64,000 nucleotides of DNA. Source: Halarcobacter sp. (lineage in GTDB: Bacteria > Campylobacterota > Campylobacteria > Campylobacterales > Arcobacteraceae). The translations under genes and the position numbers were made by a program. The notes under the pieces are model-generated. The model saw only the letters and a program-made list of their open reading frames with translations. It did no database searches and was not told the origin of the DNA. The stretch lies in the NCBI GenBank assembly GCA_048571215.1, contig CP182352.1:3540373-3604372 (forward strand), read 5' to 3'. Below, in pieces: positions 12,435 through 44,718 of the stretch (position 1 is the stretch's first letter; every line of letters begins with the position of its first letter).

Positions 12435-12449
12435 ATAAGGTCTTATTAT

Positions 12450-18882: not shown

Positions 18883-18910
18883 TATTTAAATATTAAATAA
18901 GAGGATATGT

Positions 18911-20359: not shown

Positions 20360-20377
20360 AATAGATGTGGAATTAAG

Positions 20378-21133: not shown

Positions 21134-21210
21134 GGATTTGAAATGAAATATTTTAAGCTAATATAGGGAATTTTTTGGTATTATTATTGGCAAAAGAGGG
21201 ATATTAAAAT

Positions 21211-22914: not shown

Positions 22915-22938
22915 GTAAGAAAGGATAAAATAAAAATT

Positions 22939-23889
22939 ATGAGTAAATTAAATATATTAAAAGAGTTTGATCATCGACAGTTATTCCGTTTCTTTGTAGA
23001 TGGGCGTTTATATGTAAAAGAAAATGGTTGGGAAGGTTATGAAAGTAGACAACCTGGATGCATAAAAGGGATGAGCCTATCTTATGCCCATATGGTTAAT
23101 AACTTTGAATTAAAAGATGGTTTAACTTTGGAATATATATCTAAATTACATGACCTTACATTTTATAATATTGAAAAAAAATTACGTAGAAATCGTTACC
23201 CTGGTGAGATTAGAGAGTTTAGAATTAGTTTTCTTGTTAAACCTGTTATTACAAAGGGTGGTATAGCAGAGTTAATGGGAGATAGAACAGTTGTTGATGC
23301 TTTTAAAAAGGGTATAAGAGGGTGTAATACTGCAGAAGATATATATAATGCTATTATGGCTGGGAAAAAAATCCGTTATATTTCAGAAGTTGGTTATTTA
23401 ACACCAGAATTAAATCAAGCATCTTTGGATAGAGAGCCAAAAGATTTATATCTTAAAGCAAGAGCACAAGTTAAAAAGAATATTACAGAAAAAACATTAC
23501 AACTTATTAATGAGTATAATGAAAAAATCAATACTTTAGAGGAAGAAGAGAAAATCTATTTTATTGTAGATGTAATTAAAAGATTAGAAAGATTACACCC
23601 TTTTGTTGATGGAAATATTCGTGTATTTGTTACTATTTTACTAAACCATTTATTGATGTTAAATGATTTTTATCCAGCTATTTTTGAAGAACCAAGTGTT
23701 TTTGATGCTTATACAACAAAGGAGATAGTAGAAGAGGTTAAAAAGGGGCAAGAGTTAGTTAAACAATTGATTGATAATCCAGAGAGTAGAGTATTTGGAC
23801 ATTCAATAACTGATGAAAGTGAAGAAAACATTTCAACAATTTGTGAGTTGATGTCTGAATTTTCAGAAGCAATAAAAAATCATAATTAA
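22939..23889 (+). CDS. Fic-domain protein with non-canonical active-site motif
   Basis: HPFVDGNIRVFV versus canonical HxFx(D/E)GNGRxxR. His, Phe, Asp, Gly, Asn and the first Arg are kept; the second Gly and the last Arg are replaced. Confidence 0.65.
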   Translation: MSKLNILKEFDHRQLFRFFVDGRLYVKENGWEGYESRQPGCIKGMSLSYAHMVNNFELKDGLTLEYISKLHDLTFYNIEKKLRRNRYPGEIREFRISFLVKPVITKGGIAELMGDRTVVDAFKKGIRGCNTAEDIYNAIMAGKKIRYISEVGYLTPELNQASLDREPKDLYLKARAQVKKNITEKTLQLINEYNEKINTLEEEEKIYFIVDVIKRLERLHPFVDGNIRVFVTILLNHLLMLNDFYPAIFEEPSVFDAYTTKEIVEEVKKGQELVKQLIDNPESRVFGHSITDESEENISTICELMSEFSEAIKNHN

Positions 23890-23895
23890 TCAAAC

Positions 23896-25575
23896 ATGCA
23901 AATTTTATTTTTAGTTGAAGATAAAGAAAATTTATGGGAAGAGTCTCGTATTAAATTAGAGCCCCTTTTAAAATATAATAAGTCTTTATCTCAAAATATT
24001 TTATTATCAGATTGTGCTTATATTTCTAATGGTTTTTCAAGTAAATGTTTAGTCGTAAATACAAACGAGATGAAAAAACTTGTAATGTTATCACCCTCTT
24101 TGATTGTAAATCTTTATAATAAAAAATCTCAATTGGATATTGAAGCATATTTTCGTGTCAAATGGCCTAGTGCACAAATAGTTTGTTGGAATAAAAAATA
24201 TTTAGATAAAAGATATTTTGATAATTTTATAGATGAAAAAGATATTATAGAATCTATAGCATATACAACAAATTTAGAAGCACCAAAATTTAAATTACTT
24301 AGTAAAACTGTTAAAGATGAAGATTTTATTGGTCTTATTGAGCAAGCAGTAACTGAGTATTTCTCAGATAGAAACTTTTACAAATCTTTTAAATTACTTC
24401 AAACAAGTAAGATTTTAAAAAACCGTAGTATTATCTTTAAATTTCAATATAAAATTATAAAAGAAAATGCTGATTATACTATTAAAATCAATTCTGTATC
24501 TTTACTTAGTTTTTTTGATTTAGTTGAATTGGATATAAATTATGTTTATGAGTATTTTGATGAGGTATTAGATTTTAGATATAAATATTATATAGAACAA
24601 GTTAAATTAAGACAATATATAGATGATTTATGTAAAAAGCATAATATTAATCTTGAACCCTCAATTTTTAGAACTTTTGTTTTATCAAAAGATGATAAAT
24701 TAGGATTACATAGACCATATTTTGGTGGAGTTAATGACTTAGAAGGTATAAAAACAATTAATGATAAACATTTAACGAATGTTATTTTAAAAGAGAAAGG
24801 GTTTAAAACAAATATCTCTTATGAATATTCATTAGATGAACTCAATAATGAAAAAGTTATTGAAGAGATTCCTTTGGAGTATCCATTGGTTTTAAAACCA
24901 ACAGATAAGAAAAAAGGATATGGTGTAGTAACAAATATTTTAAATCCAGAAAAAATGCTTTTTTCAGTTAAGGAACTAATGAAACTAGGAGATATAAAAC
25001 CTGTTTTAATTGAAGAGTTTTTTGTTGGTATGACATATCGTGTTTTAGTAGTTGCAGAAGAGGTAATTGCTGTACTTAAATTTATGCCTACTTATATTGT
25101 AGGAAATGGAAAATTAACTATTAAAGAGTTGATACTATCAAAAAATATACTTTTAAGATCTCGTATTCGTATAAATGATGCCTTAGAGTTGAATCTTTTA
25201 AATGATGGGTATAATTATAGTACAATATTAGAAAATGGTCATAAATATATTCTTAGTCATAACTCTCATGCTTCAATGGGTGGACAAGCTACTAATGTAA
25301 CTGATATATTTAGTGATGAATTAAAACAAATATCATGTGAAGTTACTAAAAGTTTAGGTTTAACACATACAGGAATAGATATGAATGTAAATGCTCAAGG
25401 AGATTATCGTATATTAGAAGTTAATTGTGCTCCAGCATTATCATCACATTTATATCCTAAATATGGAACATCAATTGATACTTATAGCAAAGTTTTAGAA
25501 GCTTTTTTTACTCATACTGACTTACAAAGAGTAGAAAATAAATATCTTCCCGAAATGTTTAAATATCATAAGTAA
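23896..25575 (+). CDS. ATP-grasp ligase, cyanophycin-synthetase G-domain-like (paralog of 21211..22914)
   Basis: Collinear with the paralog from MQILFL to the terminal YHK. VLKPTDKKKGYGV, YRVLVVAEEVIAVLKFMPTYIVGNGKLTIKELI, HNSHASMGGQATNVT, GIDMNV...YRILEVNCAPAL. Confidence 0.65.
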   Translation: MQILFLVEDKENLWEESRIKLEPLLKYNKSLSQNILLSDCAYISNGFSSKCLVVNTNEMKKLVMLSPSLIVNLYNKKSQLDIEAYFRVKWPSAQIVCWNKKYLDKRYFDNFIDEKDIIESIAYTTNLEAPKFKLLSKTVKDEDFIGLIEQAVTEYFSDRNFYKSFKLLQTSKILKNRSIIFKFQYKIIKENADYTIKINSVSLLSFFDLVELDINYVYEYFDEVLDFRYKYYIEQVKLRQYIDDLCKKHNINLEPSIFRTFVLSKDDKLGLHRPYFGGVNDLEGIKTINDKHLTNVILKEKGFKTNISYEYSLDELNNEKVIEEIPLEYPLVLKPTDKKKGYGVVTNILNPEKMLFSVKELMKLGDIKPVLIEEFFVGMTYRVLVVAEEVIAVLKFMPTYIVGNGKLTIKELILSKNILLRSRIRINDALELNLLNDGYNYSTILENGHKYILSHNSHASMGGQATNVTDIFSDELKQISCEVTKSLGLTHTGIDMNVNAQGDYRILEVNCAPALSSHLYPKYGTSIDTYSKVLEAFFTHTDLQRVENKYLPEMFKYHK

Positions 25576-25609
25576 GTAAATCAAGAAGATAAAAAAGGAG
25601 AACTGTAAT

Positions 25610-27415
25610 ATGCAAGCACTAATACTAGCAGCAGGTACAGGGAGTAGATTAGGTAAATATACAAAAGAAAATACTAAATGTATGTTAGAAGTTAATGGTG
25701 AAACTTTAATTAATCAAGCTCTAGCTAAATTAAATAATGTAGGTATAAAAAAACTAATAATGGTTGTTGGGTATAAAAAAGATAATCTAATTGAACATGT
25801 AGGAAATAGATATAAAAATATTGAAATTGAATATATAGAAAATCCAATTTATAGTACTACAAACAATATTTATTCTTTGTATTTAGCTAAAGATAAGTTA
25901 GCGCAAGATGATACTATATTATTAGAAAGTGATTTACTTTTTGAAGAAAAAATTCTTTTGAATTTAATAAATGATAAAAGAAAGTCATTGGCAGTAGTGG
26001 ATAAGTATCAGGCTTGGATGGATGGAACAGCTGTTACCTTGAGTGATAATGATGATATTTTAGGTTTTTATGGTAAAAAAGCATTTCAGTTTAAAAATGT
26101 TGATAAATATTATAAAACAGTAAATATTTATAAATTTTCAAAAGAGTTTTCTTTAGATGTATATATCCCTTTTTTAGAAGCATATTCAAAGGCAATGGGT
26201 GACAATGAATATTATGAATCTGTATTAAGAGTAGTTTTAATGCTAGAAGACCAAGAGTTAAAAGCTTTAAAACTTAATGGTGAAAAATGGTATGAGATTG
26301 ATGATGTACAAGATAAAGCAAATGCAGAAGTAATATTCTCTAAAAATGCAAAAGATAAATTAAAATTGATTCAAAGTAGATATGGGGGTTATTGGAAGTT
26401 TCCAGAGTTAAAAGATTTTTGTTATTTAGTTAATCCATATTTTCCAACTTTTAAAATGCAAGAGGAGATGAAAGCATATTTTTATGAACTTCTTTCTCAA
26501 TATCCATCAGGGCAATCAACACTAAGACTTCTTGCTGGGAAAATGTTTAAAGTAGAGGCTGAAAATATTTTAGTTGGAAATGGAGCATCAGAGATAATAA
26601 GAGGCTTAGGAAATGCAATTGAGGGAACTTTTGGTTTAGCTTTTCCAACATTTAATGAATATCCTGAAAGTCTAGGTTATAATAGAATAGTTAAATTTAT
26701 GCCAAAAAATGACCAATTTTCTTATGATATAAATGATATGATGAATCTAGCTAATAATTGTGACAATCTATTATTAATCAATCCTGACAATCCAAGTGGT
26801 AATTTTATATCAAAAGATTTTTTATTAGAGCTTGTAGAAAAACTTCAAAAAATAAATAAGAATTTAATTTTAGATGAGTCTTTTGTTGATTTTTCAACAC
26901 AAGGTGAAAAAGAGACTATGATTACACAAAAAATAATAGATAGATATCCTAATTTAATAGTTATAAAAAGTATATCAAAAAGTTATGGAGTTCCAGGTAT
27001 AAGACTTGGAGTTGTAGCAACATCAAATATGAAAATTATGTCAGCACTAGAAAAAGAAGTAACTATATGGAACATTAATTCTTATGGTGAATTTTTCTTA
27101 CAAATTATTGGAAAATATAAAAAAGATTATAATGCAAGTTGTGAAGAGATTTCCATGGAAAGAGATAGATTTTATATTAAACTTCAAGAAATCTCCTATC
27201 TAAAAGTTGTCTCTTCTCAGGCGAATTATTTTTTACTACATGTAAGTGATAAATTTACAGCAACTGAACTCACTGAGTTATTATTATATAAATATGAAAT
27301 TTATATAAAAGACTTGACAGGAAAAATTGGTTTTGAAGATAAACAATGTATACGAATAGCTGTAAGAAGTTATGAAGATAATGAGTTTTTAATTGATAGA
27401 TTAAAAGAGTTATAA
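25610..27415 (+). CDS. Bifunctional LicC/MobA-like nucleotidyltransferase + class I/II PLP enzyme (aminotransferase or CobD-like decarboxylase)
   Basis: N-terminus ALILAAGTGSRLG...MLEVNGETLI. C-terminal half INPDNPSGNF, ILDESFVDF, SISKSYGVPGIRLG (PLP lysine present). Confidence 0.7.
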   Translation: MQALILAAGTGSRLGKYTKENTKCMLEVNGETLINQALAKLNNVGIKKLIMVVGYKKDNLIEHVGNRYKNIEIEYIENPIYSTTNNIYSLYLAKDKLAQDDTILLESDLLFEEKILLNLINDKRKSLAVVDKYQAWMDGTAVTLSDNDDILGFYGKKAFQFKNVDKYYKTVNIYKFSKEFSLDVYIPFLEAYSKAMGDNEYYESVLRVVLMLEDQELKALKLNGEKWYEIDDVQDKANAEVIFSKNAKDKLKLIQSRYGGYWKFPELKDFCYLVNPYFPTFKMQEEMKAYFYELLSQYPSGQSTLRLLAGKMFKVEAENILVGNGASEIIRGLGNAIEGTFGLAFPTFNEYPESLGYNRIVKFMPKNDQFSYDINDMMNLANNCDNLLLINPDNPSGNFISKDFLLELVEKLQKINKNLILDESFVDFSTQGEKETMITQKIIDRYPNLIVIKSISKSYGVPGIRLGVVATSNMKIMSALEKEVTIWNINSYGEFFLQIIGKYKKDYNASCEEISMERDRFYIKLQEISYLKVVSSQANYFLLHVSDKFTATELTELLLYKYEIYIKDLTGKIGFEDKQCIRIAVRSYEDNEFLIDRLKEL

Positions 27416-27446
27416 AAATTATTAAAATTTTGCTAAAGGTTAATCA

Positions 27447-28898
27447 ATGGACGATAGAGTGATGTTATTAAACTCAGATGATATAGCACAAATCACTGGT
27501 GGGGAATGGTTTAATTTAAATGAAACAATAAAGTTTCATGGAATTAGAGTGAATATTAAACGTTTAGAAAAAAATGATATATGCTTTTGTACAAATCCTG
27601 AACAATGGGGTAAAAAGATTGTTAACTCAGAAAAATCGCTTCAGAAGATTTTTGAAAGAGGAGCTAGTGCAGCTGTAATTGTAAATAAAGAACTTGTAAA
27701 TAGTATAAAAAAACCATTATTATTAGTTGAAAATAGTAAAAAAGCTTTAGAAGATATAGCTTTTTATGTTAGAGATAATATTAATATTCCTAGAGTTTTA
27801 GTTACTGGTACAGAAGGTAAAACAGGTTTTAAAAATCAAATTTATTCACTATTGTCAAGACAGATTAATGTACATGCCAAACTCGATAGTTCAAATTTAA
27901 ATGTACCTATAATGTGCTCTTTGGCAAGTTTATCGGAGAATGATAAAGTAGAAATTTTAGAAGCATCTGTTGCAGGTCCAAATGTTGGTGTGACTAGAAG
28001 CAATATAGTAAAACCAGATATATGTGTAATAACACAAGTTGGTATTGCCCATATTACTACTCATGGTTCAGTTGATAATATGATTGAAAATAAAGCATCA
28101 ATAATAGATGCCCTTAAGAAAGATGGTATTTGTATTGTAAATGCAGATAGTGATAATTATGATAAATTAAGAGAAGCTATATATAGAAGAAAATATGTTG
28201 ATATCAAAACCTTTGGAAGTAGTTCTAAATGTAATGCTAGGATAATTGAATCTTCATTTGATAAAAAAGAACTTTTATGGAATGTAAAAGCTAATATAGA
28301 GGGGATAGAACTAGAGTATAAAGTTCCTTTATTGGGTGATTATGTTCCTGTTGCTAGTTTAATACCTTTACTTACGATTCATTATTTAGGCTATGATGTA
28401 AAAAAAGCTGCAGCTGATTTTATATATTTTAAAAGTATGGATACTATGGGTGGATTGAGTGAAATTGTTTGTAAAGATAAAACATTTAGATTTTTTGATC
28501 ATTCTCATAGGGGTTCACTTTTAGGTTATAGCTCTGCTTTAAAAGATTTTGCTTATATGCATCCTAAAAAAAATGGTAAAAAGATTGCAGTTATTGGAAA
28601 TATGATGAATATAGGAAAAATATCAAAAAAAGCTCATGCTGATTTAGTACCTTTAATAGAAGAAGCAAAAGTTGAAAGATTATATACCGTAGGTAAATTT
28701 GCAAAACCAATACATGAAAAACTTAAAGATAAATCAATTTTAATAAATCATGCAGATAAATATCAAGATATAGAAAAACAAATTTTAGCAGATATAGATG
28801 ATGGCGATGTAATTTTTATGAAAGGTAATCATAGAATTTGGTTAAAAGAACTTGCTGCAAAGATATATGATATGGGAGAACGACATGCGATCAGATGA
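27447..28898 (+). CDS. Divergent MurF-type Mur ligase family protein (paralog 3)
   Basis: VTGTEGKTGFKNQ P-loop, VITQVGIAHITTHG, RFFDHSHRG, C-terminal GDVIFMKG as in the paralogs. Confidence 0.7.
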   Translation: MDDRVMLLNSDDIAQITGGEWFNLNETIKFHGIRVNIKRLEKNDICFCTNPEQWGKKIVNSEKSLQKIFERGASAAVIVNKELVNSIKKPLLLVENSKKALEDIAFYVRDNINIPRVLVTGTEGKTGFKNQIYSLLSRQINVHAKLDSSNLNVPIMCSLASLSENDKVEILEASVAGPNVGVTRSNIVKPDICVITQVGIAHITTHGSVDNMIENKASIIDALKKDGICIVNADSDNYDKLREAIYRRKYVDIKTFGSSSKCNARIIESSFDKKELLWNVKANIEGIELEYKVPLLGDYVPVASLIPLLTIHYLGYDVKKAAADFIYFKSMDTMGGLSEIVCKDKTFRFFDHSHRGSLLGYSSALKDFAYMHPKKNGKKIAVIGNMMNIGKISKKAHADLVPLIEEAKVERLYTVGKFAKPIHEKLKDKSILINHADKYQDIEKQILADIDDGDVIFMKGNHRIWLKELAAKIYDMGERHAIR

Positions 28899-29964
28899 TA
28901 ATGTAGATATTTTCTTTTTAGGAGATACGTATTTTGGCGAATGGCATATGAGACTTCGTGGAAGAAAAGGGCAGTCTAATATTTTAGAGGAAAAAGGTTA
29001 TTTACATTTTGGTAAAAATTTTGAAGAAATACTAAGTGATGGTGATGAGGTTCTTATGAATTTAGAATGTACTATTACCGAAATAGAACCATCACCTTTG
29101 AAAGGTACTGAAAAAAAACATCTTTATTCTGCAAGAGCAGAAGGAACAATTTCAGCACTTAAAAAGTTAAATATAACCACATGTATTTTAGCAAATAATC
29201 ATGCGGTAGATTATGGTAAGGCTGGACTTATTGATACTATTACAAATTTAGAAGAAGCTGGTATTAAATATATTGGAGGAGGTAGAAATGAAGCAGAAGC
29301 AGCGGCTCCACTAATATTTCAAAAAAAACTAGGTGATAAAAAATTCAAAGCAGCTATAGTATCAACATACAATTATGGTGTAGCATCTGATAGATATGGA
29401 TTTTATGCAAAGGGTGATATCCCAGGAGTTAATAGAAAAAATTTATCAAAAATTACAGAACAAATTAAAAAAATAAAAGCAAAAGACAATGATATAATGT
29501 ATATTTTGTCTCCCCATTGGGGACCAAATTATGTATGGAGAACTTTTACTCAACAAAAACAAGGTGAAGAATTTATAAGATCAGGTGTTGATTTAATAGT
29601 TGGACATAGTGCCCATATGATTCAGGAAGTTGAATATTATAAAGATAGACTTATAATATATAGTATAGGTAATTTTCTTATAAATGGTAATGGTGAATAT
29701 AAAAGAAGAAGATTGCCACCTTATAGTTTTATAGCAAGATTGAATGTGCAAAATATTGATAATACTTTTGTTAAAAAGATCTATTTATATCCTATATTTG
29801 TTGATAATATGGCAAGTGATTTTACCCCTAGATTTGTAGATAAAAAAGAGTTTATTCATGTAAAAGATATATTAAGAAGTCATGAAATAAGTACAGATAT
29901 ATTTGATAATACAGTAATTTTAGGTCAAGATAAGTTTGGATATTTTTTAGAATATGAAATTTAA
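28885..29964 (+). CDS. CapA/PgsA-family (PGA_cap, metallophosphatase-fold) protein, no obvious membrane anchor
   Basis: FLGDTYFGEW, MNLECTIT, LANNHAVDYGKAGL, SPHWGPNY, VGHSAHMIQEVE, YSIGNFL. Start moved from 28852 to Met12 (ATG 28885), which follows GGAGAA and gives a 14-nt overlap with the upstream gene. Confidence 0.75.
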   Translation: MRSDDNVDIFFLGDTYFGEWHMRLRGRKGQSNILEEKGYLHFGKNFEEILSDGDEVLMNLECTITEIEPSPLKGTEKKHLYSARAEGTISALKKLNITTCILANNHAVDYGKAGLIDTITNLEEAGIKYIGGGRNEAEAAAPLIFQKKLGDKKFKAAIVSTYNYGVASDRYGFYAKGDIPGVNRKNLSKITEQIKKIKAKDNDIMYILSPHWGPNYVWRTFTQQKQGEEFIRSGVDLIVGHSAHMIQEVEYYKDRLIIYSIGNFLINGNGEYKRRRLPPYSFIARLNVQNIDNTFVKKIYLYPIFVDNMASDFTPRFVDKKEFIHVKDILRSHEISTDIFDNTVILGQDKFGYFLEYEI

Positions 29965-30037
29965 TTAAAAAGCAACTTTTAGGCAACTTTTATAATTTAT
30001 AATTAGAAAGATAAGAGTCTATAGTAAGGAATACAAG

Positions 30038-33000
30038 ATGATTAAGCTAATAATTAGACACACAAATGCTGAGATTGAAGAAAAAGTTGTTGAAGATGGT
30101 ATGAAGTTTCAACCATTGGAAGGTGAACAATTCTACTTCATAGGTTCTGATGGTTATACATTTACTTTATCAGGGAATGAATCTACAGTAAATCTTTCTT
30201 TAATGGATGGTAATGAAAGAGTTAGTGTAAGTCTTGATAACATGGCAGATTTAATAAAAGCTAATAATCCTGGAGATGCATTTGCTTTAACTACAGCACT
30301 AGGGGTGTCTTCAACTCCGGATGGTGCAGCTGAAATAGAACAAGCATTAGCAGACCCAAATTTAGAATCAGCACAAATTATAGATGTATTAAAAGAGAAT
30401 TTATCAGAAAGTACTGTTGCAGAAAATGATGGTGCAATTATTGATAACTTTGGTTCATTGGCAGAAGCTCTTGATGCAGCTGCAGCAGGTGCAATACAGA
30501 GTGATCCGACTTTATTTATAGACGAAACTAGAGGGCAAGAAGAAACTCCAGCAGATACGGAGAGAGGTGAACGAATCGAGACTGATACCGACACGGATAC
30601 TGATACAGATACAGATACTGACACGGATACAGATACCGATACTGATACCGACACAGATACGGACACGGACACAGATACAGACACGGATACTGATACAGAC
30701 ACTGACACAGACACTGATACAGATACTGACACGGATACAGATACCGACACAGACACTGATACAGATACTGATACCGACACCGACACTGACACCGATACTG
30801 ATACAGACACAGATACAGACACGGACACAGACACGGACACAGACACGGACACAGACACGGATACAGACACGGATACCGATACCGACACTGACACCGATAC
30901 TGATACAGACACCGATACAGATACTGATACAGACACTGATACAGACACTGATACCGACACAGACACGGATACAGATACTGATACCGACACTGACACAGAC
31001 ACTGATACAGATACAGACACCGATACTGATACTGATACCGATACTGACACAGACACGGATACAGATACTGATACCGATACTGATACCGACACGGATACAG
31101 ATACTGATACCGATACTGATACCGACACGGATACTGACACAGACACCGATACAGACACTGATACAGATACAGACACCGATACTGATACTGATACCGACAC
31201 AGATACTGACACAGACACGGATACAGATACTGATACCGACACGGATACAGATACTGATACTGACACGGATACAGACACCGATACTGATACCGATACCGAC
31301 ACTGATACCGATACAGACACAGATACAGATACTGACACAGACACTGATACTGATACAGACACTGATACTGATACTGATACCGACACGGATACAGATACGG
31401 ACACTGACACAGACACGGACACGGACACTGATACAGATACTGACACAGACACTGATACCGACACGGATACAGACACGGATACAGATACGGATACAGATAC
31501 TGATACTGATACAGATACTGACACGGATACAGATACCGACACGGACACAGACACTGATACAGATACTGACACGGACACTGATACAGATACTGACACAGAC
31601 ACTGATACAGATACAGATACAGATACCGACACTGACACAGATACAGATACAGATACTGATACAGATACAGATACAGATACTGATACAGACACGGATACAG
31701 ATACTGATACCGACACGGATACAGACACGGATACAGATACAGACACGGATACAGATACTGATACTGATACAGATACTGACACGGATACAGATACCGACAC
31801 GGACACAGACACTGATACAGATACTGACACGGATACAGATACTGATACCGACACTGACACAGATACAGACACCGATACTGATACAGACTCTGATTCAGAC
31901 AGTGATACCGATTCGGATTCAGACTCTGACACCGATAGTGATAGTGACTCAGACACTGATTCAGATACCGACAGTGATAGTGATTCAGACACAGACTCTG
32001 ACTCAGACAGTGATACGGATTCTGATAGTGACTCAGATTCTGATTCGGATAGTGATTCAGACTCAGATAGTGACTCTGATTCAGATACTGACACGGATAC
32101 GGACACAGATACCGACACAGACACTGATACGGACGCAGACACTGACACAGACACTGACACGGATACAGATACAGATACGGACACAGACTCTGACTCAGAT
32201 AGCGATACCGATAGTGATAGTGACTCAGACACAGACAGTGATACAGATTCAGACACAGATTCGGATAGCGACTCAGATACAGACTCTGATTCAGACAGTG
32301 ATACCGATTCGGATTCAGACTCTGACACCGATAGTGATAGTGACTCAGACACTGATTCAGATACCGACAGTGATAGTGATTCAGACACAGACTCTGACTC
32401 AGACAGTGATACGGATTCTGATAGTGACTCAGATTCTGATTCGGATAGTGATTCAGACTCAGATAGTGACTCTGATTCAGATACTGACACGGATACGGAC
32501 ACAGATACCGACACAGACACTGATACTGATACGGACACAGACACTGATACCGACACAGACACTGATACGGACACAGACACTGATACCGACACAGACACGG
32601 ATACCGATACTGATACGGACACAGATACGGACACAGACACTGATACAGACACAGACACTGACACGGATACAGATACAGATACGGACACAGACTCTGACTC
32701 AGATAGCGATACCGATAGTGATAGTGACTCAGACACAGACAGTGATACAGATTCAGACACAGATTCGGATAGCGACTCAGATACAGACTCTGATTCAGAC
32801 AGTGATACCGATTCGGATTCAGACTCTGACACCGATAGTGATAGTGACTCAGACACTGATTCAGATACCGACAGTGATAGTGATTCAGACACAGACTCTG
32901 ACTCAGACAGTGATACGGATTCTGATAGTGACTCAGATTCTGATTCGGATAGTGATTCAGACTCAGATAGTGACTCTGATTCAGATACTGACACGGATAC

Positions 33001-36000
33001 GGACACAGATACCGACACAGACACTGATACTGATACGGACACAGACACTGATACCGACACAGACACTGATACTGATACTGATACGGACACAGACACTGAT
33101 ACCGACACAGACACGGATACCGATACTGATACGGACACAGACACTGATACGGACACAGACACTGATACAGACACAGACACGGATACAGATACGGACACAG
33201 ACTCTGACTCAGATAGTGATAGTGACTCAGACACAGACAGTGATACAGATTCAGACACAGATTCGGATAGCGACTCAGATACAGACTCTGATTCAGACAG
33301 TGATACCGATTCGGATTCAGACTCTGACACCGATAGTGATAGTGACTCAGACACTGATTCAGATACCGACAGTGACAGTGATTCAGACACAGACTCTGAC
33401 TCAGACAGTGATACGGATTCTGATAGTGACTCAGATTCTGATTCGGATAGTGATTCAGACTCAGATAGTGACTCTGATTCAGATACTGACACGGATACGG
33501 ACACAGATACCGACACAGACACTGATACTGATACTGATACGGACACAGACACTGATACCGACACAGACACTGATACTGATACTGATACGGACACAGACAC
33601 TGATACCGACACAGACACGGATACCGATACTGATACGGACACAGACACTGATACGGACACAGACACTGATACAGACACAGACACGGATACAGATACGGAC
33701 ACAGACTCTGACTCAGATAGTGATAGTGACTCAGACACAGACAGTGATACAGATTCAGACACAGATTCGGATAGCGACTCAGATACAGACTCTGATTCAG
33801 ACAGTGATACCGATTCGGATTCAGACTCTGACACCGATAGTGATAGTGACTCAGACACTGATTCAGATACCGACAGTGATAGTGATTCAGACACAGACTC
33901 TGACTCAGACAGTGATACGGATTCTGATAGTGACTCAGATTCTGATTCGGATAGTGATTCAGACTCAGATAGTGACTCTGATTCAGATACTGACACGGAT
34001 ACGGACACAGATACCGACACAGACACTGATACTGATACGGACACAGATACTGATACTGATACGGACACAGACACTGATACCGACACAGACACTGATACCG
34101 ACACAGACACTGATACCGACACAGACACGGATACCGATACTGATACGGACACAGATACGGACACAGACACTGATACAGACACAGACACTGACACGGATAC
34201 AGATACAGATACAGATACGGACACAGACTCTGACTCAGATAGCGATACCGATAGTGATAGTGACTCAGACACAGACAGTGATACAGATTCAGACACAGAT
34301 TCGGATAGCGACTCAGATACAGACTCTGATTCAGACAGTGATACCGATTCGGATTCAGACTCTGACACCGATAGTGATAGTGACTCAGACACTGATTCAG
34401 ATACCGACAGTGACAGTGATTCAGACACAGACTCTGACTCAGACAGTGATACGGATTCTGATAGTGACTCAGATTCTGATTCGGATAGTGATTCAGACTC
34501 AGATAGTGACTCTGATTCAGATACTGACACGGATACGGACACAGATACCGACACAGACACTGATACTGATACTGATACTGATACGGACACAGACACTGAT
34601 ACCGACACAGACACTGATACTGATACTGATACGGACACAGACACTGATACCGACACAGACACGGATACCGATACTGATACGGACACAGACACTGATACGG
34701 ACACAGACACTGATACAGACACAGACACGGATACAGATACGGACACAGACTCTGACTCAGATAGTGATAGTGACTCAGACACAGACAGTGATACAGATTC
34801 AGACACAGATTCGGATAGCGACTCAGATACAGACTCTGATTCAGACAGTGATACCGATTCGGATTCAGACTCTGACACCGATAGTGATAGTGACTCAGAC
34901 ACTGATTCAGATACCGACAGTGATAGTGATTCAGACACAGACTCTGACTCAGACAGTGATACGGATTCTGATAGTGACTCAGATTCTGATTCGGATAGTG
35001 ATTCAGACTCAGATAGTGACTCTGATTCAGATACTGACACGGATACGGACACAGATACCGACACAGACACTGATACTGATACGGACACAGATACTGATAC
35101 TGATACGGACACAGACACTGATACCGACACAGACACTGATACCGACACAGACACTGATACGGACACAGACACTGATACCGACACAGACACGGATACCGAT
35201 ACTGATACGGACACAGATACGGACACAGACACTGATACAGACACAGACACTGACACGGATACAGATACAGATACGGACACAGACTCTGACTCAGATAGCG
35301 ATACCGATAGTGATAGTGACTCAGACACAGACAGTGATACAGATTCAGACACAGATTCGGATAGCGACTCAGATACAGACTCTGATTCAGACAGTGATAC
35401 CGATTCGGATTCAGACTCTGACACCGATAGTGATAGTGACTCAGACACTGATTCAGATACCGACAGTGATAGTGATTCAGACACAGACTCTGACTCAGAC
35501 AGTGATACGGATTCTGATAGTGACTCAGATTCTGATTCGGATAGTGATTCAGACTCAGATAGTGACTCTGATTCAGATACTGACACGGATACGGACACAG
35601 ATACCGACACAGACACTGATACTGATACGGACACAGACACTGATACCGACACAGACACTGATACTGATACTGATACGGACACAGACACTGATACCGACAC
35701 AGACACGGATACCGATACTGATACGGACACAGACACTGATACGGACACAGACACTGATACAGACACAGACACGGATACAGATACGGACACAGACTCTGAC
35801 TCAGATAGTGATAGTGACTCAGACACAGACAGTGATACAGATTCAGACACAGATTCGGATAGCGACTCAGATACAGACTCTGATTCAGACAGTGATACCG
35901 ATTCGGATTCAGACTCTGACACCGATAGTGATAGTGACTCAGACACTGATTCAGATACCGACAGTGACAGTGATTCAGACACAGACTCTGACTCAGACAG

Positions 36001-37729
36001 TGATACGGATTCTGATACCGATTCAGATTCAGATAGTGACACCGATTCTGATAGCGATAGTGACACAGATTCAGATTGTGATACAGATGTTGATGCAGAT
36101 AAACCAATTGCAGATATTGAAGTTGAGTATGAAAAAACAGTTACCGTAAATGAAGTTTGTTCTACTTCACAAAATCTAGGTAATTTAGCTGCTTATTTAG
36201 ATGGTATGAATAATGTAAATGCAAATGAAGTTGTTGATTTAGCAAAAGATCAAAATGGTAACCCACAACAAGATCAATACAACTTAGAATTGACTTCATT
36301 TGGAGATGGAGATTTAGCATTATATGATAATGAATCTAATCAAAATGAAACTAGAGATATCAATGATATTGATTTAAATGATGTTACACCATTTGATCCA
36401 TCAAATGCAGAAGTAGTAAATAACACCATAAATCATACATACAATATGACATCAAATGAAGTTATTTTTGAAGGTGATATTGTTCAAAATGGTAATGTAA
36501 TAGGAACATCAGACAATGATGTGATTATTGTAAAAGGTGAGGTTCAAGGTGGTTCAAATGTTAATGCAGGTGCTGGAAATGACCTTATTGCAATAGTAGG
36601 AAATATTGGAGAAAATCAACCAGCAATTGATGGGGATAGTGGTACAGACATACTATATCTAAGTAAACCTGCATCTAATTATGAGTTTTTAGATATCCAC
36701 TTCCATGACAATTTAGATGGACATATTTTAGATAAAGAGACTCAAAGTGTATTAACATTTAATAACATAGAAGGAATTGCCTTTGGTGATGGTTCTGGGG
36801 TAAATTGTAAAGTAAATACATCAACAAGCTATCAATACAATGTAAGTATAAGTGCTGCATTAACTGATATTGATGGAAGTGAAACTTTATCTGTAGCAAT
36901 ATCTGGAGTGCCAAATGGTGCTACACTATCAAGTGATACCTATACATTAATTGATAATGGAAATGGAAATTGGACAGTTGAAGTACCAAATGGAGATGTA
37001 TCTATAGTTGATGATATTACTATGAATGTTCCATCAGATATAGGAGATTTTAACCTTGAAATAACAGCAAGAGCAACTGAAATCAATGATAATGATGGTA
37101 CTGATTATGCAGAAACAACAGATAGTGATTTTGTAACTGATGATATCGATCCAGATACAGAAATCAATAAATTTGACTTAGTAGGAAATGTAACTACTGG
37201 TTCAGGAGATGATACAATTAATGTGTCAGATGATATATTCTTAGCTAATGTTGATACTGGAGCAGGAGATGATACAATCAATGTAGGAGATGATATAGGA
37301 TTATTTACTTCAATAGATACCGGAGCAGGAGATGATACAATTAATATTGGTGACAATATTAGTTATTCAGCTCAAATTGATATGGGTGATGGTATTGATA
37401 CCCTAAGTTTAGATGATGATATTGATTTATCTGATATAGCAAAAAATGTTGATAATGTTGAAATAATTGATTTGGATAATGATGAAGACCAAGATCTAGA
37501 AATAGATTTAGATTCAATTATCGATTTAACTGATGATGATAATGATTTAGTTGTTATTGGTGATAATGGTGACAAAATTGACTTTAATGATTCTGGTTGG
37601 GAAAAAGGCGATAGCACAAAAACTGTTGATGGACAAGATGGAGAGTTTACTGAATACACAAATACAAACAATCCAAATGTATCAATTTTAATTGATAATG
37701 ACATTGACGTAGATGATGATGACATTTAA
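30038..37729 (+). CDS. Giant T1SS substrate: LapA-like N-terminal module, 1840-aa (Thr/Ser)-Asp dipeptide array, C-terminal RTX-like/acidic secretion region
   Basis: RBS AAGGAA upstream. N-terminal 181 aa non-repetitive. Residues 182-2021 alternate X-Asp. The C-terminal 542 aa carry [16 protein letters not shown], 3x TGAGDDTIN(V/I)GD repeats and the acidic tail [10 protein letters not shown]1SS genes lie downstream. Confidence 0.85.
30581..36100 (+). repeat. Coding hexanucleotide-period array (GAY + ACN/TCN/AGY), 920 dipeptide units, with roughly 0.5-kb higher-order repeats
   Basis: Direct reading. Higher-order unit starts at 32186, 32690, 33200, 33704, 34226, 34748, 35282 and 35792, with a truncated first Ser-rich block at 31886. 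Confidence 0.95.
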
Positions 37730-37736
37730 AAAAACT

Positions 37737-37770
37737 ATATAAGATAGCATTTCGCTATCTTATATTTTAT
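37737..37770 (+). terminator. Rho-independent terminator after the giant gene
   Basis: ATATAAGATAGC-ATTTC-GCTATCTTATAT (12-bp perfect stem) followed by TTTAT, 8 nt after the stop codon. Confidence 0.7.
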
Positions 37771-37781
37771 ATAGGTTTAAT

Positions 37782-38594
37782 TTGACTTTAGATGAGTTAA
37801 AAAAAGAGAATGAAACTCTTAAAAATGAAATTGTACTGTTGAATAGTAAAATATCAGAGAATCTAGAACAAAATAGAATCAATGATAAGATGCTATTTCA
37901 ACAAAGTAAAATGGCTTCAATGGGTGAAATGATTGGAAATATTGCACACCAATGGAGACAACCTCTTATGGAGCTTTCTTCTATTTTTATGTTAATTCAA
38001 ACTAAAATTGAGTTTGAAGGAGATATAGAAAATAGTGAACTTATTGATTTTATTAAAAAATCTGACGAAATTACCCATTACATGTCTCAGACAATAGATG
38101 ATTTTAGAAACTTCTTTGCAAAAGAAAAAATTAAAGTTGATTATAAAATATCAAACCAAGTAAGTTTAGCTGTAAGTATGTTAAATATGTGTTTAAAACA
38201 GCATGGAATAAAAGTAGAAATAGTTGTTCTTAAAAATCCAAAACTTTATGGTTTTAAAAATGAATATTCGCAAGTTCTTATTAATATTTTAAATAATTGT
38301 AAGGATGCTTTGATTCAAAGAAATATAAAGAATCCCAAAATCAAGATTATAATTAATAAAAAAGATGATAAATCAGTTTTAACAATTGAAGATAATGCTA
38401 AAGGAATAAATATAGAACCTATAGAAAAAATATTTGAACCATTTTTTACCCATGACAAAAAAAATGGAACAGGAATAGGTTTATTCATGTCAAAACTAAT
38501 AATTGAAAATAATATGAATGGAAGATTATTTGTTGAAAATATTAACAATGGTGCAAAATTTACTATAACAGTACCCTTTAGTCATAAGTTATAA
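37782..38594 (+). CDS. Soluble histidine kinase (coiled coil + HisKA-like + HATPase), no sensor or TM domain
   Basis: TTG start. H-box GNIAHQWRQPL. ATPase motifs EDNAKGI, GTGIGLFMSKLI. Confidence 0.75.
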   Translation: MTLDELKKENETLKNEIVLLNSKISENLEQNRINDKMLFQQSKMASMGEMIGNIAHQWRQPLMELSSIFMLIQTKIEFEGDIENSELIDFIKKSDEITHYMSQTIDDFRNFFAKEKIKVDYKISNQVSLAVSMLNMCLKQHGIKVEIVVLKNPKLYGFKNEYSQVLINILNNCKDALIQRNIKNPKIKIIINKKDDKSVLTIEDNAKGINIEPIEKIFEPFFTHDKKNGTGIGLFMSKLIIENNMNGRLFVENINNGAKFTITVPFSHKL

Positions 38595-41232: not shown

Positions 41233-43362
41233 ATGGAAGAATTAGAAAAAACAGTTAATAGAAAAGTAGATACTCTTTTAGAGTCTCTATTTTTTATTGC
41301 TAAATATTATCAAAGAGCGACTTCTAAAGAGTCATTACTTAATGGCTTGTCAATTTTTGGAGATGTAATGGATGTTGATAATTTTATTCAAGCATCAAAA
41401 AAGGTTGCATTAATCTCAAAATTTGTTAAAAGAGATAATATTGAAGATATAAATAAATTAACATTTCCAGCTGTAATTTTCACAACAAAATACGACTCTA
41501 TGATTTTACTTGACTACGATGAAGAAGGGAATAGTGCAAATTTGATTATTCCTGAATTGAGTTTAGGTGAAACTACTATGCCATTAGATGAACTTAATTC
41601 ACTTTATACAGGCAGGGTAATTATTATTAAGCCTGCATATAATTTTGAAAATCGTTCTTCAAGAGAAGTATCTATCTTAAATCCAAAAAAATGGTTTTGG
41701 GATACAATGAAGAAAAGTAAAGAGTTCTACGCAAGAGTTATTGTTGCAACTATTTTTATCAATATCTTTGTGATAGCTTTACCTTTATTTATAATGAATG
41801 TCTATGATAGAATTTTACCAAACAATGCTATTGAATCCTTATGGGCATTAGCAATTGGTGTATTTGTTGTAATGATATTTGATTTTATTCTTAAAATTAT
41901 TAGGTCGTATTACATTGGTAAAGCTTCAAAAAAAGCAGATATCATTATGTCAAATAAAATATTTGATCATCTTTTAAATTTAAGGCTTGATTCTAGACCT
42001 TCATCTACTGGTATGTTTGTTAATAGATTACAATCTTTTGAATCTATAAAAGAGTTTTTTACAACAGCAACAATTACTACTTTAGTGGATATTCCATTTT
42101 TATTTATTTTTGTAGCAATTATTTTTTATATTGGTGGACCTTTAGGATGGATTCCTGTAATTACAATAATTATAGCTCTAATTAGTTCTTTTTTTATGCA
42201 AAAGATAATTAAAAAAAATGTTACAAATACAGTTAATGAGGAACAATTAAAACAAACAACATTAAATGAAACTGTAACAGGATTAGAAATAATAAAAAGT
42301 GTTCGCGGTCAAAATAGAATGAAAACACACTGGGATAAATCATTAAGTCAAACAGCATATTATGGAGAAAAAACACAACTTTTCTCACAAGTTGCAAGTG
42401 GCCTTACCGATTTTATAACAAAGTTTTCAAATGTAGTTATTATTGTATTTGGAGTTTTTTTAGCTTCAAGTGGTGATATGACGATGGGTGCAATCGTAGC
42501 TTCAATGATGTTAAACAGAAGAGCAGTTGCTCCTGCATCAAAGATTGTGAATCTAGTTATAAAATATGATAGAGCAATGATTGCATTAAAAAATATTGAT
42601 GACATTATGAGTTTAGATGTTGAAAAAGATCATAAAGTATATTTAAGTAGACCCCATTTAATTGGAGACATAGAGTTTCAAGATGTAAGTTTTTCTTATA
42701 AAAAACAAAATTATGAAGTATTAAAAAATATAAATTTAAAGATAAATCAAGGTGAAAAAGTAGCGATTTTAGGAAAAATTGGTTCAGGAAAGTCAACACT
42801 AATTAAGATGATTCAAAATCTTTATGTTCCAACAAAAGGTTCAATTTTAATTGATAATACAGATGTTAGACAAATTGACCCAGTAGATTTAAGAAAGGCT
42901 ATAGGTGTTGTTCCTCAAGAATCATTTTTATTTATGGGAAGTGTAAAAGATAATATTACAATAGGAGATCCTTTTGCAACAGATGAGGAGATATTAAAAG
43001 CTTCAAAAATTGCTGGAGTTCATGATTTCTTAGGTAAACATGAAGCGGGTTATGATTTTCTTGTAGGTGAAAGAGGAGAAGGATTAAGTGGTGGTGAAAT
43101 TCAATCTATTACTTTAGCAAGAGCACTTGTAAGTAATCCAGATTTTATGATATTTGATGAGCCTACAAACTCAATGGATAAACAAACAGAAAGAGATTTT
43201 TTAAAAAAATTAAAACTTATTTTAGATAAACAAACTGTGATTATTGTTACCCATAAGTTATCTTTATTGTCTTTGGTTGATAGGGTAATAGTTTTAGATA
43301 ATGGTAAAATAGTAGCTGATGGTCCAAAAGAAAAAGTATTTTCTAAAGCGAATAAAGAGTAG
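41233..43362 (+). CDS. Type I secretion ABC transporter (HlyB-like; N-terminal C39-like domain without catalytic Cys)
   Basis: Walker A GKIGSGKST, signature LSGGE, Walker B MIFDEPT, 6-TM core. The N-terminal ~130 aa are C39-like but have no Cys at the expected site. Confidence 0.9.
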   Translation: MEELEKTVNRKVDTLLESLFFIAKYYQRATSKESLLNGLSIFGDVMDVDNFIQASKKVALISKFVKRDNIEDINKLTFPAVIFTTKYDSMILLDYDEEGNSANLIIPELSLGETTMPLDELNSLYTGRVIIIKPAYNFENRSSREVSILNPKKWFWDTMKKSKEFYARVIVATIFINIFVIALPLFIMNVYDRILPNNAIESLWALAIGVFVVMIFDFILKIIRSYYIGKASKKADIIMSNKIFDHLLNLRLDSRPSSTGMFVNRLQSFESIKEFFTTATITTLVDIPFLFIFVAIIFYIGGPLGWIPVITIIIALISSFFMQKIIKKNVTNTVNEEQLKQTTLNETVTGLEIIKSVRGQNRMKTHWDKSLSQTAYYGEKTQLFSQVASGLTDFITKFSNVVIIVFGVFLASSGDMTMGAIVASMMLNRRAVAPASKIVNLVIKYDRAMIALKNIDDIMSLDVEKDHKVYLSRPHLIGDIEFQDVSFSYKKQNYEVLKNINLKINQGEKVAILGKIGSGKSTLIKMIQNLYVPTKGSILIDNTDVRQIDPVDLRKAIGVVPQESFLFMGSVKDNITIGDPFATDEEILKASKIAGVHDFLGKHEAGYDFLVGERGEGLSGGEIQSITLARALVSNPDFMIFDEPTNSMDKQTERDFLKKLKLILDKQTVIIVTHKLSLLSLVDRVIVLDNGKIVADGPKEKVFSKANKE

Positions 43363-43364
43363 TT

Positions 43365-44708
43365 ATGAAAAAGAATAATGATATAAATTTTGTGCATAAC
43401 CTTTATGGTCAAGCAAATGAAAAAGCTTCATCAAAAATAGATTTTTTATTTATATTTATTTTATGCTTTTTAGTAGCTGCCATTGTTTGGTCAAGTATAG
43501 CTCAAATAGATGAATTAGCAAGGGGTCAAGGTAAAGTAATCCCTTCAAGTAAAATCCAAACTATTCAATCTTTAGATGGAGGATTAGTTGAAGAGATTTT
43601 AGTTAAATCTGGTGATCAAGTAAAAAAAGGGCAACCTCTTATGAAAATTGATACAACAAGATTTCTAGCTTCTTTAGAGGAAAATCAAGAGAGTTACTAT
43701 CAATGGCTAGCTATGAGAGTTAGACTTGAAAAAGAATCTGTTGTTGATATTGATAAGAAAATTGAAAAGTTAGTTTTCCCTGATGATATTAAAAAAATTG
43801 CAAAAGATTATATTAAATCAGAAACATTTTTATATATTAATAGGGTTAATGAGTTGAAAAGTTCTATAAATGTTTTTGATTCACAACTAAATCAAAGATA
43901 TCAAGAGATAAAAGAGATCAATCAAGAGATTTCTAAATTAAAAACTAGATTAAAACTTGTAACTATTGAGAGAAAAACTATAAAAGATTTAGTTAGAACA
44001 GGGGTTAAGTCAAAAGTTGAATTAATTGCAATTGAAAAAGAATATCAACAAATTGTCGGAGATTTAAAATCAGCAGAATTATCAATTCCTAAATCTAGAT
44101 ATGCAATAAATGAGATAAAAAACAAAAGATTAGAGAGGATAACTCAATTTAGAACAGAAGCATCAAAAGAGTTACAAAGAATTTCTGTTGAAATTAAAAA
44201 AGCAGAAGCAAGAATGATTTCAGCTACAGATAAAGTTAATAAAACGGTTATAAAATCAAGTGTTAATGGAATTGTAAAAGAGATTTATATGAATACAATT
44301 GGTGGAGTTGTTCAATCAGGAGCAAGTTTATTAGATATTATTCCTAATAGTGACAATCTACTTGTTGAAGCAAAAATAGACCCTAAAGATATTGCTTTTA
44401 TAAGTCCCATGCAAAAAGCTATAGTTAAAATTTCAGCTTATGATTATTCAATATATGGAGGTCTAGATGGAAAAATTGTTGAGATATCTGCAGATAGTAT
44501 CATTGATAAAGAGAGTAAAGATGGTAAAAGTTACTATAAAATTATAGTTCAAACTGAAAAGAATTATTTGGAGAAAAATGGAAATAAATTGCCAATTATT
44601 CCTGGGATGATAGCCAATGTTGATGTAATTACAGGTAAGAAAACTATTATGGATTACATCTTAAAACCAATACTTAAAATAAAACAAAATTCATTACATG
44701 AAAAATAA
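43365..44708 (+). CDS. HlyD-family type I secretion membrane-fusion protein
   Basis: N-terminal TM, long coiled-coil region, beta-barrel end (IPGMIANVDVITGKKTIMDYILKP). Confidence 0.9.
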   Translation: MKKNNDINFVHNLYGQANEKASSKIDFLFIFILCFLVAAIVWSSIAQIDELARGQGKVIPSSKIQTIQSLDGGLVEEILVKSGDQVKKGQPLMKIDTTRFLASLEENQESYYQWLAMRVRLEKESVVDIDKKIEKLVFPDDIKKIAKDYIKSETFLYINRVNELKSSINVFDSQLNQRYQEIKEINQEISKLKTRLKLVTIERKTIKDLVRTGVKSKVELIAIEKEYQQIVGDLKSAELSIPKSRYAINEIKNKRLERITQFRTEASKELQRISVEIKKAEARMISATDKVNKTVIKSSVNGIVKEIYMNTIGGVVQSGASLLDIIPNSDNLLVEAKIDPKDIAFISPMQKAIVKISAYDYSIYGGLDGKIVEISADSIIDKESKDGKSYYKIIVQTEKNYLEKNGNKLPIIPGMIANVDVITGKKTIMDYILKPILKIKQNSLHEK

Positions 44709-44718
44709 AGGAAATAAC

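Follow-up and report, generated by a model that had tools for sequence, protein, structure and literature searches.

A long Thr/Ser-Asp dipeptide array as the probable stalk of a type I-secreted surface adhesin in Halarcobacter sp.

Introduction

The Ser-Asp (SD) repeat regions of the staphylococcal surface proteins ClfA, ClfB and SdrC-E are the closest described counterparts of the element reported here, an uninterrupted array of X-Asp dipeptides (X being mainly Thr or Ser) in a giant adhesin gene. The gene lies in a 64-kb stretch, referred to below as the window, of a metagenome-assembled genome (MAG) of Halarcobacter sp. Staphylococcal SD repeats evolve in length while remaining in frame (PMC3324548), and they are modified with GlcNAc by SdgA and SdgB (PMC3794999, PMC8561734). 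The SD region of SdrC was measured to be highly extended and resistant to compaction (PMC10367597).

Like the SD repeats, whose consensus is described in PMC3324548, the array in the window is a long run of X-Asp with degenerate codons, having 920 dipeptides and near-maximal synonymous entropy, and 324 of the 920 are literally Ser-Asp. As in the SD regions, its length varies in frame and it sits between a (here putative) cell-anchoring element and functional domains. It would also resemble them in forming a polyanionic, extended, compaction-resistant stalk, a behaviour that we infer for Thr-Asp by analogy with the measurements on SdrC. An earlier sequence-only reading of this DNA had proposed the staphylococcal Sdr proteins as the nearest analogy, and this was apt, since a long X-Asp array with degenerate codons is present here too. 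Unlike in the SD regions, X is mainly Thr and the host is Gram-negative. The array is about 5 times as long as the ClfA example of 189 dipeptides, and it is organised in higher-order units of 0.5 kb, not in a unit of 18 nt. The predicted anchor is N-terminal (a putative plug of the type I secretion system, T1SS) and not a C-terminal LPXTG/sortase site; no C-terminal LPXTG motif, membrane span or basic tail was found in the window protein, which has an RTX-like domain there instead. Also unlike the staphylococcal case, no SdgA/SdgB-like glycosyltransferase was detected among the window open reading frames (ORFs) that were scanned.

The second group for comparison comprises giant RTX adhesins of the LapA/MpIBP/FrhA type, which are thought to extend on chains of Ig-like domains stiffened by Ca2+. 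LapG-regulated adhesins have a retention domain of beta strands, a helix, a [T/A/P]AAG motif and then an unstructured segment that spans the secretion conduit (PMC13090378). The window protein shares with these adhesins its giant size, rapid evolution of repeat number, adjacent genes for TolC, an LssB/LapB-type ABC transporter and HlyD, a predicted RTX-like C-terminal fold with a secretion end, and a predicted N-terminal order of beta-domain, helix, AAG motif and unstructured segment. It differs from them in its extender, which is a single low-complexity polyanion of 1840 residues and not a Ca2+-stiffened Ig-like chain.

The array is most likely the T1SS counterpart of the staphylococcal Ser-Asp repeats, an acidic stalk that is ordinary in kind. 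In the reading favoured here, to which a probability of roughly 0.6 is assigned, it forms the stalk of an RTX-type surface adhesin that is secreted by a type I system, anchored at its N-terminus and carried outward by a long unfolded polyanion. Full-text literature searches returned no description of Thr-Asp arrays in bacterial proteins, and a search on T1SS adhesins of Arcobacter returned nothing specific. Such stalks are apparently undescribed, though widespread, and they are not mechanistically surprising.

Results and Discussion

Anatomy of the array

The gene and the parts of the array are as follows.

30038..37729, plus strand: adhesin ORF, 2563 aa, 40% Asp, net charge about -1052
30581..31885, plus strand: 218 pure Thr-Asp dipeptides, synonymous codons scrambled
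31886..32185, plus strand: 5'-truncated higher-order unit, aligning to unit 1 positions 97-408 (294/300 identical)
32186..32689, plus strand: unit 1, type A, 504 nt, a 294-nt Ser/Thr-Asp block and 35 Thr-Asp
32690..33199, plus strand: unit 2, type A, 510 nt, 36 Thr-Asp, 100% identical to unit 7
33200..33703, plus strand: unit 3, type B, 504 nt, a 282-nt block and 37 Thr-Asp
33704..34225, plus strand: unit 4, type B, 522 nt, 40 Thr-Asp
34226..34747, plus strand: unit 5, type A, 522 nt, 38 Thr-Asp
34748..35281, plus strand: unit 6, type B, 534 nt, 42 Thr-Asp
35282..35791, plus strand: unit 7, type A, 510 nt, 36 Thr-Asp
35792..36100, plus strand: unit 8, type B, terminal, 309 nt, 4 Thr-Asp, 3' end diverged

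The longest (X-D)n run covers residues 182-2021 (nt 30581-36100), which is exactly 920 dipeptides or 1840 residues, with Asp at 920 of 920 even positions. Thr (592) and Ser (324) account for nearly all X residues, the other 5 of the 920 being Ala (2), Cys (1) and Val (1), and the array is without any Glu. The Ser-rich block measures 294 nt in type A and 282 nt in type B, while the Thr-Asp runs comprise 35-42 dipeptides in the seven full units and 4 in the terminal unit, which ends ...S-C-T-V-A, each with its Asp partner.

The sequence-only reading had described an uninterrupted array of 5520 nt over residues 182-2021, opening with about 1.3 kb of pure Thr-Asp and a 5'-truncated Ser-rich block at 31886. 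It had further described eight tandem units, each built from a Ser/Thr-Asp block of about 0.3 kb and a Thr-Asp run varying by multiples of 6 nt, with two subtypes distinguished by a 12-nt indel in the order AABBABAB. Coordinates, composition, layout, unit design and subtype order were all exact, and the start of every unit was reproduced by custom scripts when the boundaries were checked as that reading had suggested. Tandem Repeats Finder detected only a degenerate 24/36-nt period in the array, with 72% matches, indicating that regularity is far lower in the DNA than in the peptide. A general repeat-family search yielded degenerate families of 392 copies that were not usable for the unit structure.

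The frame is intact across all 5520 nt; frame-disrupting differences had been named earlier as a sign of a pseudogene. Because 5.5 kb keep a perfect in-frame periodicity, it is very unlikely that the adhesin gene is a pseudogene.

Codon usage and evolution of the array

Synonymous codons are used broadly in the array. Asp is encoded by GAT (503) and GAC (417), Thr by ACA (221), ACT (159), ACG (113) and ACC (99), and Ser by TCA (121), AGT (104), TCT (61), TCG (25) and AGC (13). The fraction of GAC among Asp codons was 0.45 in the array and 0.11 in 28 other window ORFs (chi-square p = 1e-58), and that of ACG+ACC among Thr codons was 0.36 compared with 0.12 in the same ORFs (chi-square p = 1e-24). 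This shifted usage of Asp and Thr codons causes the jump in GC content, which is 0.43-0.46 in the array and 0.24-0.33 elsewhere in the window. The codon counts and GC values therefore bear out the remark that the region uses G/C-containing codons freely, against AT-rich flanks. Horizontal transfer from a GC-rich donor was considered as the source of these codons and rejected, as the GC content of such arrays is similar in most hosts examined while the flanks track the host. Thr-Asp arrays had a GC content of 0.44-0.48 in most hosts examined and 0.52-0.54 in the two most GC-rich, with flanks ranging from 0.27 to 0.51.

In the first Thr-Asp run the synonymous entropy of Thr codons was 1.90 bits out of a possible 2, and that of Asp codons 0.97 out of 1, in agreement with the earlier description of scrambled codons as opposed to a simple hexamer. 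A longer period beneath this run was also considered and rejected, because identities at lags of 12 to 198 nt were about 0.80, which is the random expectation. Adjacent identical Thr codons were observed 29 times against 61 expected (0/2000 shuffles), and adjacent identical hexamers 18 times against 31.6 expected (p = 0.0015). Avoidance of adjacent identical codons was also found in the Thr-Asp arrays of four other loci (L041, L068, L107 and L123). Codon scrambling was not seen in three others (L010, L031 and L110) and is therefore not a general trait of Thr-Asp arrays.

The absence of Glu and the small number of X residues other than Thr or Ser, together with the synonymous diversity, show strong purifying selection on the peptide pattern, and support the earlier view that it is the peptide that is selected. 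The codon pattern also shows some selection, or mutational bias, against short-range DNA identity. The further proposal that codon shuffling damps replication slippage holds at short range, where adjacent identical codons and hexamers are avoided. It fails at long range, where near-identical 0.5-kb units and Thr-Asp runs differing by 6 nt are present.

The higher-order units are 94-100% identical to each other, the longest exact repeat is 892 nt, and the Ser blocks of the first seven units vary at one synonymous site only. Given this identity among the 0.5-kb units, the long exact repeat and the 6-nt length steps, the array is being actively expanded, contracted or homogenised, and its distal 4 kb has been expanded or homogenised recently by unequal recombination. 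In the proposed mechanism, synonymous sites diversified beyond chance would lower hexamer slippage. Length would change through 6-nt steps in the Thr-Asp runs and through unequal recombination among the near-identical units, always in frame. Stalk length would thereby become a fast-evolving trait.

C-terminal region and secretion system

The region downstream of the array contains the following features.

36101..37729, plus strand: C-terminal 542 aa, opening with about 110 residues that are poorly modelled, followed by beta-rich domains and RTX-like repeats
37195..37345, plus strand: 60-nt tandem repeats, three 20-aa '[14 protein letters not shown]' RTX-like units
37782..38594, plus strand: histidine kinase, its adjacency to the adhesin kept in L003
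38578..39270, minus strand: OmpR-type response regulator, kept in L003
39380..41221, plus strand: TolC-family outer-membrane protein, PF02321 OEP 115.7 bits (cutoff 22)
41233..43362, plus strand: LssB/LapB-type T1SS ABC permease/ATPase, TIGR03375 823 bits (cutoff 693)
43365..44708, plus strand: HlyD-family T1SS periplasmic adaptor, TIGR01843 377 bits (cutoff 209)

The adhesin has an end of T1SS type (...[17 protein letters not shown]) and terminates in ...DVDDDDI. Its C-terminal 542 aa are 66% identical to P0001, encoded at the syntenic locus of another Halarcobacter genome (L003), and over its last 100 aa the protein shares 47-53% identity with giant-adhesin C-termini. An AlphaFold2 model of the C-terminal part had a predicted local distance difference test (pLDDT) score of 66. 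Foldseek ranked 9cse, the crystal structure of an RTX-like adhesin domain from Aeromonas hydrophila, first for this model (E 3.8e-7), and the next matches were T1SS lipases with RTX beta-rolls. As modelled, the C-terminus has an RTX-like fold and a secretion domain. The repeats in this part are present only as variants of a 20-aa '[10 protein letters not shown]' unit and not as canonical GGxGxDxUx nonapeptides.

The ABC transporter carries an N-terminal C39-like domain (PF03412) in addition to PF00664 and PF00005. The TolC-like protein scored 163.7 bits against TIGR01844 (E 7e-48), which is below the cutoff of 225. With the genes for TolC-like, LssB-type ABC and HlyD proteins and the RTX-like C-terminal model, the assignment of the protein to the T1SS adhesins in the sequence-only reading was well founded.

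The N-terminal domain

Two features precede the array within the protein.

30038..30580, plus strand: N-terminal domain of 181 aa, beta strands predicted at residues 3-67, then helices; putative periplasmic retention plug
30476..30490, plus strand: AAAAG, aa 147-151 (AAAG = aa 148-151), a match to the LapG-type motif [T/A/P]AAG, 30 residues before the array

The N-terminal 181 aa had no match in Pfam or NCBIfam, and a word-indexed search with them found two fragments only. An exhaustive profile search recovered 49 family representatives (50% clustering; P0116-P0164), with the domain at residues 1 to about 180 in all 49. Among the members are adhesins of 2271-4285 aa that have folded repeats, VWA domains and C-termini of T1SS type. 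The family shares a conserved segment, 'IIDDFGSL..LDA[AT]AAG'. The motif [T/A/P]AAG was present at positions 142-153 in 20 of the 42 representatives long enough to judge, the remainder having close variants. In the window protein AAAAG is placed at the end of a predicted helix (126-149).

As predicted, this layout of beta-rich domain, helix, AAG motif and unstructured segment is that of LapG-regulated adhesins, and AAAAG is a putative site of LapG-type cleavage. The domain is only a putative member of the LapA retention-module family.

A protein with a Transglut_core domain encoded at 1534-2133 was considered as a candidate LapG and rejected, having no LapG match in Pfam or in a sequence search of PDB. 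Another Transglut_core protein is encoded between a CapA homolog and an HlyD-type gene on a Desulfobulbaceae contig (L131, 7439-8371). Upstream in the window (8835-10646, minus strand), a dCache sensor fused to HD_5 (HD-GYP-like) is a possible cyclic di-GMP phosphodiesterase near the adhesin locus.

Thr-Asp arrays in other genomes

A genome scan was carried out with one genome per species, a threshold of at least 30 consecutive Thr-Asp codon pairs and loci of 8 kb; the resulting counts are lower bounds. At least 120 Thr-Asp stretches were found in many phyla. Thr-Asp arrays are thus common and widespread in bacterial genomes, and the array of the window is a less unusual feature than the earlier reading had implied.

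In Gram-negative bacteria the array was found directly after a retention module and AAG motif in T1SS adhesins. The retention-module model NF033682 (cutoff 50) matched at 90-119 bits in three loci, namely Pseudocitrobacter faecalis DSM 27453 (L072, 119 bits), a Methylococcaceae MAG (116 bits) and Wenzhouxiangella limi (90 bits), the latter two being L052 and L012 among the scanned loci; two Sulfurimonas MAGs gave sub-threshold matches. L072 comes from a cultured enterobacterial type strain in which the retention module is followed by an array of 143 Thr-Asp dipeptides, and this cultured carrier makes the idea experimentally testable. In Gram-positive bacteria the array was found directly before a sortase-like motif, membrane span and basic tail, in at least 13 loci by a loose motif rule; the Ser-Asp stalks of staphylococci occupy the corresponding place. 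Clostridia MAGs (L067, L099, L123 and about 10 others) have arrays of up to about 500 dipeptides before an apparent anchor of sortase type. Poribacteria (L019, L084, L100 and L111) have shorter arrays after a signal peptide and a domain that is cohesin-like by eye. The occurrence of X-Asp arrays both in T1SS proteins of Gram-negative bacteria and in sortase-anchored proteins of Gram-positive bacteria suggests convergent, generic spacers of tunable length across envelope types.

Four related loci differ in the length and make-up of the array.

L127: on a 2.79-Mb contig, N-terminus 47% identical, (TD)176, then other acidic repeats
L079: Arcobacter sp. MAG SZUA-449, N- and C-terminal sequences matching, (TD)236(SD)153
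L003: Halarcobacter, syntenic locus, 620 or more Thr-Asp followed by folded domains over 1850 aa
L011: Sulfurimonas MAG, 537 dipeptides, blocks of Asn/Ser alternating with Thr-Asp runs, another higher-order organisation

The acidic repeats of L127 are 'EDT/DET' repeats of about 60 aa, and in L051 (Sulfurimonas) the Thr-Asp array is followed by a long (GSKD)n array; stalks can therefore combine different repeat chemistries.

The closest full-length homolog, P0117, is 57% identical to the window protein across the N-terminal domain up to 'RGERID'. Beyond this point P0117 continues with about 1900 aa of folded repeats, whereas the window protein continues after 'RGERIE' with 1840 aa of X-Asp. Folded repeats were also found in the relatives P0120, P0126 and P0128. 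In the window protein there is no tandem extender of Ig-like or cadherin-like domains, the interval between the N- and C-terminal regions being wholly (X-Asp)920. Because P0117 has folded repeats at the homologous point, the array appears to occupy the position of the extender, where it would replace folded extenders or add to them in an evolutionarily labile way. This agrees with the earlier proposal that the array stands in place of extender repeats.

A proposed anchored polyanionic stalk and its alternatives

In the proposed mechanism, the adhesin would be exported C-terminus first through the adjacent T1SS, and its RTX-like C-terminal part would fold outside the cell. The N-terminal beta-rich domain would be unable to pass the outer-membrane channel and would stay behind as anchor. 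Beyond the putative cleavage site comes the (Thr/Ser-Asp)920 segment, which would thread the channel and project the C-terminal binding/RTX region from the cell. The stalk would be an unfolded polyanion that repels itself, carrying about 920 negative charges and taking the role of the Ca2+-rigidified Ig-like extenders of classical RTX adhesins. The contour length of the array is about 0.66 um (at 0.36 nm per residue), and judging from its composition it may plausibly bind cations in seawater. A polyelectrolyte stalk placed after a retention or cleavage site would then suggest a second solution to the extension of RTX adhesins.

Several results weigh against this interpretation. NF033682 did not match the N-termini of the window protein or of L127. 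Profile-profile comparison (hhalign) of the domain with the retention module gave weak local matches, with probabilities of 3.9% (3 sequences) and 8.7% (38). The AlphaFold2 model of the N-terminal domain was of low confidence (pLDDT 58.9), and Foldseek found no structural match for it in PDB. No LapG (PF06035) or LapD was found among the scanned ORFs of the window, which covers 64 kb of a 3.64-Mb contig, and because of this we only infer surface retention and regulated release. The Pfam family HemolysinCabind (PF00353) had no match to the C-terminus at E <= 0.01. The failure of NF033682, the lack of LapG and LapD among the scanned window ORFs, and the absence of canonical nonapeptide repeats detectable by Pfam are also points in which the protein departs from LapA/MpIBP/FrhA-type adhesins. 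Finally, the exact length of 920 dipeptides rests on one assembly with an exact internal repeat of 892 nt.

The last point raises the possibility that the array is real but that the number and order of its units (AABBABAB, 920 dipeptides) were misreconstructed. This is compatible with the stalk explanation and carries an appreciable though minor chance. Apart from the long exact repeat and the 94-100% identity of the units, it is favoured by the origin of the sequence from a MAG, by short-read contigs of the same organism that end at both array edges, and by frameshifts near the arrays in the related long-contig assemblies L003 and L011. It is countered by the frame, intact over 5520 nt with perfect dipeptide periodicity, by the differences in Thr-Asp run length between units, which are not expected from a collapsed consensus, and by independent genomes in which the orthologous loci have arrays ranging from 176 up to at least 620 dipeptides.

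In L003 (9275-10001) the adhesin is broken into an ORF of 3533 aa, a gap and an ORF of 657 aa. In L011 (about 7100-7370) the ORF stops 15 aa past the array and the homologous C-terminus continues in another frame. Each break may be an assembly indel or pseudogenisation. In L004 (P0020), a homolog with an N-terminus 58% identical to that of the window protein stops at the expected start of the array and is followed by an integrase-like gene. This break reflects a chimeric short-read contig or else the insertion of a mobile element, and it is uninformative on the array. Since such arrays break short-read assemblies, adhesins of this kind are likely to be under-counted and mis-annotated in MAGs.

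The low scores of the N-terminal domain bear on a second alternative, in which this domain has no retention role and the protein is fully secreted as a matrix polymer that binds Ca2+, Mg2+ or metals or modulates minerals. By analogy, the array would resemble the Asp/Ser-rich proteins associated with biomineralisation in its long repeats of Asp and hydroxy amino acids, extreme negative charge and cation affinity. Dentin phosphophoryn, with its (Asp-Ser-Ser)n repeats, is a eukaryotic and heavily phosphorylated protein and not an anchored adhesin stalk. Besides the failure of NF033682 and the lack of LapG and LapD among the scanned ORFs, the Asp content (40%) and net charge (about -1052) of the protein would suit a released polyanion, as would the predominance of environmental or marine bacteria among the hosts listed for similar arrays (Sulfurimonas, Arcobacter, Nitrotoga, Desulfobulbaceae). 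Such a release is nevertheless judged unlikely. In giant adhesins the N-terminal family is confined to the start of the protein and keeps [T/A]AAG at a fixed position, and the ABC transporter is of the LssB/LapB type used by retained adhesins. In other lineages, moreover, Thr-Asp arrays stand behind genuine retention modules, and in Gram-positive bacteria they stand at the wall-anchor position.

Upstream gene cluster

A tightly packed cluster on the same strand (11103-29964, plus strand) lies directly upstream of the adhesin. It begins with genes for a protein with ankyrin repeats and an OmpA domain (Ank-OmpA), a Ser/Thr kinase of 1022 aa with Sel1, an unknown protein and a fusion of Mur ligase and LPG_synthase_C. 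These are followed by genes for a Mur ligase, BaxI, two ATP-grasp proteins on either side of a Fic-like protein, and finally for a fusion of NTP-transferase and CobD-like aminotransferase, for a third Mur ligase and for CapA (PGA_cap). For the kinase, its N-terminal half had only insignificant matches of (alpha/alpha)6 type.

The core of the cluster, Mur ligase-CapA with the ATP-grasp and NTP-transferase/aminotransferase genes, was compared among the window, L125/L126, L127, L128, L129, L130 and L131. It is 56-83% identical in Sulfurimonas, other Campylobacterota and Desulfobulbaceae, usually with no adhesin adjacent. From the gene content, the cluster may make an amino-acid-containing polymer or metabolite.

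The proximity of these genes gives rise to a third alternative, namely that the hydroxyls of Thr and Ser or the carboxylates of Asp in the array are decorated (glycosylated, phosphorylated or amino-acylated) to give a hybrid polymer. The GlcNAc modification of SD repeats by SdgA and SdgB is a precedent. The kinase, the three Mur-ligase-family, two ATP-grasp, Fic-like and CapA-like proteins encoded upstream on the same strand could be involved, and L127 has this cluster in front of its orthologous adhesin as well. Set against this, a search of the scanned window ORFs for glycosyltransferase Pfam families, such as SdgA/SdgB-type neighbours, found none, and in L125/L126, L128, L129 and L130 no adhesin lies next to the cluster. 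Modification of the array is accordingly considered quite improbable. As the cluster is conserved elsewhere without the adhesin, its adjacency here may be coincidental, and a functional link between the two was downgraded to a low-probability lead. In a specific form of this idea, the array would be the substrate of the cluster, its hydroxyls being phosphorylated or its Asp beta-carboxylates amino-acylated in a cyanophycin-like manner before export; the chance of this is very slight. If true, the product would be a polyanionic surface polymer that is ribosomally templated and then decorated by enzymes, for which there is no described example among T1SS adhesins.

Flanking signals and minor observations

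Consensus matches to expression signals were found on both sides of the adhesin gene.

29996..30025, plus strand: promoter-like site TTTATA-18-TATAGT, consensus match only, just 5' of the adhesin start
37737..37765, no strand assigned: terminator-like hairpin of 12-13 pairs, consensus match only, 8 nt past the adhesin stop

An AAGGA element resembling a Shine-Dalgarno sequence can also be read at about -12 to -8 relative to the adhesin start. An exact-sequence look-up with the whole protein matched no record.

Three spurious ORFs of 1859-1970 aa cover the array, at 30154-36066 (minus strand), 30528-36107 (minus strand) and 30567-36149 (plus strand). They arise because GAYACN repeats contain no stop codons in these frames, and they could be mis-annotated by gene callers. 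The Thr-Asp frame is the real one, since it is the sole frame continuous with the conserved N- and C-terminal domains.

Beyond the HlyD gene lie genes for an Ank-OmpA protein and then a WG-repeat protein. This Ank-OmpA protein (44698-46056) and its paralog at the head of the upstream cluster (11103-12434) bracket the whole region of cluster, adhesin and T1SS, and an Ank-OmpA protein was also found downstream of HlyD in L001 and L003.

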